Shown one piece after another: positions 1 to 386 of a DNA stretch of 386 nucleotides. The stretch's first letter is position 1, and each line of letters opens with the position of its first letter. The stretch comes from Escherichia coli (GTDB lineage Bacteria; Pseudomonadota; Gammaproteobacteria; Enterobacterales; Enterobacteriaceae), in assembly GCF_003334765.1 (NCBI RefSeq), contig NZ_QOWT01000127.1. One strand, written 5' to 3'. The position numbers and the translations under genes are program-made. Under the pieces are notes generated by a model. The model was not told where the DNA came from and ran no database searches. It saw only the letters and a list, made by a program, of their open reading frames with translations.

Positions 1-386
1 TATGCCGAATCGCTGAAAAAATTTCGTCATCCAGGGAACAAGATTGGCTGCATTGTGATGAACGCCAATCCCTTTACACAGGGTCACCGTTATCTGATTC
101 AACAGGCTGCGGCACAGTGCGACTGGCTGCATCTGTTTTTAGTTAAAGAAGATTCTTCACGCTTCCCCTATGAAGACCGGCTGGATCTGGTATTAAAAGG
201 CACCGCCGATATTCCACATCTGACTGTGCATCGCGGCTCCGAATACATCATCTCCCGTGCCACGTTCCCCTGCTACTTCATTAAAGAACAGAGCGTCATC
301 AACCATTGCTACACCGAAATTGATCTGAAGATTTTCCGTCAGTACCTCGCTCCCGCGCTGGGTGTAACTCACCGCTTTGTCGGTAC
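1..386 (+). CDS. citC: [Citrate (pro-3S)-lyase] ligase (citrate lyase synthetase), internal fragment; partial at both ends, frame 1, last complete codon 382-384
   Basis: Seen in sequence: frame 1 has no stop codon over 128 codons, whereas + frames 2 and 3 contain multiple TGA/TAA/TAG (e.g. 14-16, 56-58, 95-97, 140-142, 144-146, 171-173, 282-284). The reverse strand has stops in every frame, with the longest open stretch about 64 codons. The translation (…KIGCIVMNANPFTQGHRYLIQQAAAQCDWLHLFLVKEDSSRFPYEDRLDLVLKGTADIPHLTVHRGSEYIISRATFPCYFIKEQSVINHCYTEIDLKIFRQYLAPALGVTHRFVGT) matches my recollection of E. coli CitC over essentially its whole length, including the T-x-G-H motif and the conserved GVTHRFVGTEP region. 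Codon usage is typical of Enterobacteriaceae. The identification rests on recalled homology, not a database search. Confidence 0.86.
76..87 (+). other. citC: T-x-G-H nucleotide-binding signature (T-Q-G-H; codons aca cag ggt cac) of the cytidylyltransferase-like / citrate-lyase-ligase C-terminal domain
   Basis: Seen in sequence: codons 76-87 encode TQGH, directly preceded by a hydrophobic stretch then N-A-N-P-F (GCIVMNANPF). Established knowledge: the (H/T)xGH motif following a hydrophobic beta-strand is the ATP-binding signature of the nucleotidyltransferase alpha/beta phosphodiesterase superfamily, to which the CitC C-terminal domain belongs. Confidence 0.7.

Follow-up and report, generated by a model that had tools for sequence, protein, structure and literature searches.

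The 386-bp stretch of Escherichia coli DNA studied here (contig NZ_QOWT01000127.1, positions 1–386; referred to in full length as the window) lies within citC, the gene for citrate lyase ligase. It very probably stems from the interior of the coding sequence of a functional citC carried on an island as a paralogue of the resident gene, where citC is the third gene of an operon of about 10 kb that also encodes an amidohydrolase, a transporter of the major facilitator superfamily (MFS), and an aconitase (AcnB).

A six-frame scan for open reading frames (ORFs) revealed that frame +1 is free of stop codons over the entire window and that the other five frames are all interrupted, in line with the original prediction, a note made from the sequence alone that had read the window as one open frame encoding citrate lyase ligase. 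The hidden Markov model check it had proposed, against PF08218 (Citrate_ly_lig), resulted in a strong match of the 128-residue translation (residues 15–128 on model positions 1–114 of 182, E-value of 1.4e-56, 191.5 bits), and the NCBIfam model TIGR00124 (cit_ly_ligase) was matched over profile positions 127–254 of 335 with 247.5 bits. The latter score is just below the curated equivalog cutoff of 262.1 bits since the fragment spans only 128 of the 335 profile positions; the full-length island CitC containing the window reached 588.4 bits. BLASTP analysis revealed 126 of 128 amino acids identical to the resident E. coli CitC (residues 133–260), close to the expected residues 130–260 of UniProt entry P77390, which we take to be E. 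coli CitC. Thus, both CitC and the ligase domain were strongly matched, and the lack of such matches, named beforehand as the contrary outcome, did not occur. Identical DNA carries the RefSeq annotation citC, and as a sequence feature the window is an already known, ordinary citC.

CitC (EC 6.2.1.22) activates citrate lyase at the expense of ATP: acetate is adenylated and then transferred to the thiol of the phosphoribosyl-dephospho-CoA prosthetic group of CitD. The same acetate ligase function is predicted for the island protein, carried over from the family via its 98.6% identity to the resident E. coli CitC. The nucleotidyltransferase core of the ligase domain and its T-Q-G-H signature were both located in the window (Table 1), though PF01467 matched the core only weakly (E-value of 0.078). 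In this fold, the T/H-x-G-H motif generally serves in nucleotide binding. An alignment of seven CitC sequences from five genera (A2), which takes in sequences from Enterobacter, Citrobacter, Salmonella, and Klebsiella, showed T26, G28, and H29 to be invariant, with Q, N, K, or L at the x position, and the window kept all 65 of 65 invariant columns, including T-x-G-H and ISRATFP. One of the two amino acid differences from resident CitC is this x position (Q in the window, N or K in the residents) and the other is an H in place of R, both in variable columns of the alignment. At the DNA level, 11 codons differ from the resident copy, and because 9 of them are synonymous in frame +1 (2 are non-synonymous), this is the selected frame. 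Outside the window, residues 18–112 in the N-terminal part of the full island CitC (L001 11608–12663) revealed a weak match to an ArsN2 N-acetyltransferase model (29 bits, E-value of 6.5e-7), in agreement with the GNAT-like domain that CitC proteins have at their N-terminus.

As claimed at the outset, the window is wholly intragenic, with no second gene, intergenic DNA, or appreciable repeat structure. Neither tandem nor inverted repeats were detected in it, and a consensus scan of the window revealed no promoter-like or terminator-like sites. Three features might hint at another embedded element, such as a small RNA, a regulatory repeat, or a gene on the antisense strand, each with its counterpoint. 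The longest antisense ORF encodes 59 amino acids (193–372), but an ORF listing is purely mechanical and the substitutions are, as described, mostly synonymous in frame +1; a single 12-nt direct repeat inside the coding sequence (42–53, GATTGGCTGCAT; 121–132, GACTGGCTGCAT) consists of just two short copies and is probably due to chance; and the sole match in an Rfam search of the window, which yielded none above threshold, was to the archaeal snoRNA family sR4 (246–303, minus strand) with 15 bits against a gathering score of 50 and an E-value of 0.47. An embedded element is thus effectively refuted and has next to no probability.

A second citC on an island

Comparison of the window with 5,426 complete E. 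coli genomes via megablast resulted in matches in 5,422 of them, while an identity of at least 99% was reached in 13 only, all of them at 100%. All resident citC copies were 95–99% identical to the window (the best among the matches listed with 96.9%), and each of the 13 exact-match genomes harbored citC at two places. A query covering the amidohydrolase-MFS-citC junction was found in 32 of the 5,426 genomes (c. 0.6%), each with a second citC elsewhere, and in all 13 exact-match records the 100% match was located about 300 nt downstream of the match to the MFS-citC junction. Since 13 of 13 exact matches adjoin this junction and the resident copies do not reach 99%, we assigned the window to the island-type allele of an accessory citC. 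The original prediction had implicitly equated the fragment with the canonical citC of K-12, which did not hold, as the exact sequence was found only in the second, island-borne citC of a different operon; its remark that any peculiarity should be sought in the flanks was borne out by the operon found outside the window.

Alternatively, the window might derive from an ordinary resident citC (dpiBA-citCDEFXG-citT) of E. coli or a close Escherichia lineage, in which case the island context would be irrelevant. Essentially every E. coli genome does have a resident citC 95–99% identical to the window, and the island cit block must once have copied such an allele, but not one of the 5,426 complete genomes contained a resident copy at 99% or above, all 13 exact matches being the island copy, and an exact 32-mer with island-specific bases was absent from 100,044 species-representative genomes. 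We therefore regard a resident origin as quite improbable. A plasmid origin was rejected as well: only eight records labeled as plasmids matched (95.6–96.4%, none at 100%), several of them megabase-sized and of chromosome length. Several citC-matching plasmid records measure 0.7–4.9 Mb and are thus chromosomes, or parts of chromosomes, that PLSDB or RefSeq lists as plasmids.

Taking the window as part of the island-type citC, we compared its surroundings with the canonical locus, which consists of dpiA-dpiB (divergent), citCDEFXG, and citT. In strain 746, the order is insertion sequence (IS) ISEc38, a divergent gene for a GntR-family regulator, genes for the amidohydrolase (265 amino acids) and the MFS transporter (449 amino acids), citC-D-E-F-X-G, acnB, and IS66 remnants. 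Strain Santai displayed the same layout with ISEc38 and IS66 flanks, and in both strains the annotation gives each of the ten genes from the one for GntR through acnB as intact. Thus, the canonical dpiBA and citT flanks are replaced in these two strains, which were examined in full, by the GntR, amidohydrolase, and MFS genes upstream and acnB downstream. The genes citC-D-E-F-X-G were contiguous in every examined record holding the exact window. Since the gaps between the genes from the amidohydrolase to acnB range from a 26-nt overlap to 31 nt, these genes would share a single transcript.

The further surroundings of the operon are mosaic (L001 1–8200 and 19700–24386; likewise in the Santai island, L004), with genes for Hha/YmoA, YagK/YfjJ, and zinc-ribbon proteins, ISEc31, ISEc38, IS66, and Mu-transposase remnants, and extra or degraded agaR, class II fructose-bisphosphate aldolase, UxaA-family hydrolase, and malX genes. 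Judged from its map position in strain 746, the island may be located at a tRNA site (possibly pheV).

Whether the island citC is functional was also considered with respect to selection. The ratio of non-synonymous to synonymous substitution rates (dN/dS) between island and resident copies was 0.09 for the window, 0.08 for citC, 0 for citE, 0.008 for citF, 0.27 for citX, and 0.075 for citG, while citD was identical. These low values support purifying selection on the island cit genes but are not decisive, as part of them reflects history before the copy was made. A redundant, decaying, or unused duplicate, of which the window would be an intact-looking relic, is conceivable in a host that already owns a full resident cit operon, on an island littered with IS elements and pseudogenes, and in view of an Enterobacter operon whose downstream acnB has shrunk to a 147-nt remnant. 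It is highly improbable, given the open frame, the full-length protein with 588 bits against a cutoff of 262, the retention of all invariant family residues in the window, the low dN/dS of about 0.08–0.09 (in part donor-lineage history), the intact annotation of all ten genes in both strains, and an operon layout kept in Enterobacter, K. oxytoca, C. amalonaticus, S. salamae, and E. fergusonii.

Likeness to the resident genes and probable gene conversion

Homology of the island to the canonical cit locus at the DNA level is confined to a gap-free block of 5,207 bp with 97.7% identity, which starts at nt 7 of citC and stops 19 nt short of the end of citG. The initial 6 nt of citC and the final 19 nt of citG thus lack homology to the resident genes. 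The island acnB (L001 16865–19462) was 96.9% identical to the resident gene (L018 1500–4097), with 8 of 865 amino acids differing (99.1% protein identity), and this copy is gene-exact, too, without homology to resident DNA upstream of the start codon. Identity drops towards the ends of both blocks, namely to 96.0% and 93.5% for cit and to 95.3% and 92.4% for acnB. At the protein level, identity between island and resident copies amounted to 100% for CitD and CitE, 99.8% for CitF, 98.6% for CitC, 97.3% for CitX, and 96.9% for CitG.

The ends themselves are of another type. The island CitG terminates in IVTWFLASLTGR, compared with IVTWFLTALTRVPVYVK in the Enterobacter operon and ILTWFLAQI in the resident protein, and AcnB starts with MLK in the island (ATG TTA AAA) and in the Enterobacter remnant, but with MLE in the resident protein (GTG CTA GAA). 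Overall, the island resembles the Enterobacter-type operon at the N-terminus of CitC, the C-terminal end of CitG, and the first residues of AcnB.

Comparison of the islands of 746 and Santai revealed 48 differences in the 5.2-kb cit block, but just 3 in the roughly 5.9 kb that are island-specific. In a four-way comparison of the Santai island (L004) with L001, L014, and L002, including Santai's own resident cit locus, sites separating the 746 island from Santai's resident copy were used as discriminating sites. The Santai island copy was resident-type at 13 consecutive such sites (L001 12078–12309, corresponding to the window positions of the tract in Table 1), 2 of which carry alleles specific to Santai's own resident copy, and further mosaic sites follow in its cit block up to about L001 14708. 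Part of this mosaic presumably stems from earlier hosts or from other recombination with resident-type donors.

Altogether, the gene-exact copies of about 97% identity with foreign-type ends and the resident-type tract of Santai point to gene conversion between island and resident paralogues. According to this scenario, an operon of foreign origin, of the type present in Enterobacter, Citrobacter, or Salmonella, would have entered an Escherichia lineage, where resident genes would have overwritten the cit and acnB coding regions up to the points where homology stops. Shorter conversions would have continued afterwards, with the window representing a form not overwritten by present-day resident alleles, and recurrent conversion would keep the island cit and acnB genes near-identical to the resident ones. 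Recent assembly of the operon from duplicated E. coli genes without conversion was considered less likely, as the citC, citG, and acnB ends and the gene order match the operons of Enterobacter, Citrobacter, and Salmonella.

The operon in other genera and its predicted pathway

The amidohydrolase has no close relative in E. coli outside the island. Its nearest homologues, 57–76% identical, were found in Enterobacter, Citrobacter amalonaticus, Klebsiella oxytoca, Salmonella enterica subsp. salamae, and E. fergusonii, and their gene neighborhoods are listed in Table 1 together with the features of the window.

Table 1. Features located in the window and gene layouts at loci encoding homologues of the island amidohydrolase
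Feature or organism	Position in window or locus	Strand	Description
Internal citC fragment, frame +1	1..386	+	Codons 132–259 and two bases of codon 260 of the 351-residue island CitC, corresponding to residues 133–260 of the 352-residue resident CitC
Nucleotidyltransferase (cytidylyltransferase-like) core of the ligase domain	43..216	+	Window residues 15–72; TIGR00125 (cyt_tran_rel), 43 bits vs. cutoff of 27.7
T-Q-G-H, nucleotide-binding signature of type T/H-x-G-H	76..87	+	Window residues 26–29; alignment A2 of seven sequences
All 12 nucleotide differences from the resident allele of GF4-3	78..309	+	Positions 78, 79, 81, 127, 144, 192, 218, 258, 261, 270, 300, 309
Minimum conversion tract in the island copy of Santai	78..309	+	13 resident-type sites in the four-way comparison
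Enterobacter sp.	L005, L006		GntR, then amidohydrolase-MFS-citCDEFXG, then a 147-nt remnant of the acnB 5' end
C. amalonaticus	L015		GntR, then amidohydrolase-CitMHS-citCDEFXG-AcnB-oadGA...
S. salamae	L017		Citrobacter-like layout, citX outside the operon
K. oxytoca	L007, L008		Aconitase-PrpF-aconitase-Iso_dh-AcnB, GntR, then amidohydrolase-CitMHS-citCDEFG-oadGAB
E. fergusonii	L012		GntR, then amidohydrolase-CitMHS, near a second lactonase-CitMHS-aconitase-PrpF-aconitase cluster
Two metagenomic contigs	L009, L016		GntR, then amidohydrolase-MFS beside acnB with yacL-type neighbors
Paraburkholderia, homologue c. 52% identical	L011		MFS transporter and LysR regulator only

The acnB remnant of Enterobacter is located directly after citG (L006 9093–9239) and is 88% identical to the island acnB; therefore, the ancestral operon had acnB, which was lost in this Enterobacter. 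In Enterobacter sp. CP135594, the annotation leaves L005 12176–13248, between the MFS gene and citD, without a gene. As this segment matches the annotated citC of L006 at 100% identity, a gene was missed in calling, and it is not a pseudogene.

Both metagenomic contigs (L009 3–5682 and L016 9079–16251) carry the GntR-amidohydrolase-MFS module without citrate lyase and directly beside acnB, upstream in one contig and downstream in the other, with acnB neighbors of the yacL type (UPF0231) as in the resident acnB region of E. coli. In K. oxytoca (L007/L008 1–8966) and E. fergusonii (L012 14448–20795), larger tricarboxylate-type clusters adjoin, which contain two further aconitase-family genes, a gene for PrpF (aconitate-isomerase family), and an Iso_dh-family dehydrogenase gene; E. 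fergusonii additionally harbors another lactonase gene (PF10282), accompanied by a separate CitMHS transporter gene and one for a LysR regulator. PrpF and the extra aconitases in these two species suggest a wider tricarboxylate-utilization region.

Between the GntR and amidohydrolase genes, a near-palindrome, GTTG(C/T)ATA(G/T)TCAAC, was near-invariant in 8 of 8 loci from at least six genera and was followed by a second copy or half-site. This alignment (A1) comprised the 122-bp intergenic region of the island (L001 9302–9423), in which the candidate operator reads GTTGCATAGTCAAC, and the intergenic regions of L006, L009, L016, L015, L017, L008, and L012. Judged by its form, the palindrome is probably the operator of a GntR/HutC-type regulator, and we infer that the GntR protein controls the island operon.

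The first gene of the operon encodes an amidohydrolase of PF04909 (Amidohydro_2, E-value of 1e-43), with 4-sulfomuconolactone hydrolase as its best NCBIfam match. Its nearest PDB entries are putative hydrolases of 2-pyrone-4,6-dicarboxylate (PDC) and the PDC lactonase LigI (89 bits to LigI); the closest structures, 2ffi and 4i6k, come from structural genomics and bear no more specific names than "putative" or "family protein". Aligned to LigI (4d8l), the amidohydrolase keeps HxH (H6 and H8 of the query), the DH motif, and DWPH, and in LigI the HxH, His, and Asp residues have catalytic roles. From these similarities, the protein was placed in the LigI/4-sulfomuconolactone-hydrolase clade (cog3618) of Amidohydro_2, and lactone hydrolysis is predicted. 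The transporter type varies, being an anion-symporter-like MFS protein in some genera and CitMHS in others.

Since CitD and CitE are 100% and CitF is 99.8% identical to the resident proteins, the substrate of the lyase is presumably citrate itself, and AcnB, 99.1% identical to the housekeeping protein, should act on the normal aconitase substrates. A specialized lyase for a citrate analogue, e.g., an intermediate of the PDC pathway or hydroxycitrate, seems unlikely for the same reason. In the pathway that we infer, the MFS transporter would bring in a precursor, the LigI-like amidohydrolase would open it, the precursor most plausibly being a tricarboxylic acid lactone such as isocitrate lactone, AcnB would isomerize the opened product to citrate, and citrate lyase, activated by the island CitC, would cleave citrate to oxaloacetate and acetate. 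If a lactone were opened to isocitrate, this would account for AcnB being the partner found most constantly and for citrate lyase following, with or without oxaloacetate decarboxylase. We lean slightly towards the broader idea, in which some precursor is converted to a tricarboxylate of the tricarboxylic acid cycle and then cleaved by citrate lyase; isocitrate lactone in particular is a rather doubtful candidate for the substrate.

Relation to known citrate lyase clusters and significance

The closest known counterpart of the island citC is the resident E. coli gene of locus I (PMC2735749). Both products belong to the same family with the same domain architecture and near-equal length, and citD-E-F-X-G follow in both loci. 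The settings differ: the resident locus has DpiAB upstream and citT downstream, neither of which is present in the island operon, which in turn has the regulator, amidohydrolase, and transporter genes upstream, a second acnB downstream, and IS flanks. While the resident-type citC is essentially universal in E. coli, the island operon was confined to the 32 genomes mentioned above.

A survey of citrate-fermentation loci describes locus I (citAB/citCDEFXGT) and locus II (citS-oadGAB-citAB/citC2D2E2F2X2G2) and mentions neither aconitase nor amidohydrolase (PMC2735749). Locus II of K. pneumoniae and Salmonella LT2 is likewise an extra or alternative lyase cluster that is variably present and thought to be horizontally mobile (PMC2735749), and it carries oadGAB, as do the Citrobacter, S. 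salamae, and K. oxytoca relatives of the island-type operon. While locus II is controlled by CitAB and imports citrate by CitS, the island-type operon combines GntR, a LigI-like amidohydrolase, and an MFS or CitMHS transporter with a link to AcnB.

LigI (2-pyrone-4,6-dicarboxylate lactonase) and 4-sulfomuconolactone hydrolase are the nearest characterized relatives of the first gene product, the PF04909 fold being common. LigI is known from a setting of aromatic degradation, whereas the amidohydrolase genes stand in the context of aconitase and citrate lyase, and no aromatic-degradation genes were found in nine sampled amidohydrolase neighborhoods.

Based on these comparisons, we tentatively propose a third type of citrate-lyase cluster in Enterobacterales, regulated by GntR via a conserved operator, in which a tricarboxylate lactone from plants or the diet (in the simplest case isocitrate lactone) would pass, by way of a transporter and a LigI-like lactonase, to a private AcnB and citrate lyase, with the E. 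coli copies being continually overwritten by the resident paralogues. Taken as a whole, this proposal is possible but falls somewhat short of being probable.

Several points weigh against the island origin of the window, the conversion scenario, or the pathway that we propose. With respect to the origin of the window, the absence of the 32-mer leaves the donor lineage without a candidate among the 100,044 species representatives, and a resident citC with the window allele could exist in an unsampled lineage. As shown by one mismatch inside the Santai tract and 19 further private sites, the donor differed somewhat from the resident copy that Santai has today. Consensus scans of the region between the GntR and amidohydrolase genes revealed no clear promoter, and terminator matches were not in excess; over the whole operon, such scans yielded no more promoter or terminator matches than shuffled sequence. 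The neighborhood of the Paraburkholderia homologue lacks aconitase and citrate lyase. On the model for 4-sulfomuconolactone hydrolase, the amidohydrolase reached 137 bits, far under the curated cutoff of 500, so that the lactonase assignment holds at the level of the superfamily or clade, and Amidohydro_2 also takes in decarboxylases and hydratases. Finally, a literature search by the RefSeq protein accessions of the operon and by keywords revealed no publication tying the operon to any substrate, no paper on an isocitrate-lactone hydrolase, and none for or against the proposed pathway.

The window itself is of little importance, being a recognizable piece of a well-understood gene, and the call of an ordinary gene from 386 bases was right about the gene and missed its status as a paralogue. 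As an allele, it marks a rare accessory operon for citrate lyase and aconitase that is conserved and yet apparently uncharacterized. The locus also provides a clean natural case of housekeeping genes and an operon on an island evolving in concert, which can mislead allele-based typing, and read mapping could mix up the two citC copies. Since the operon is common to pathogens and commensals from several genera of Enterobacterales, it may define a nutrient niche for them.

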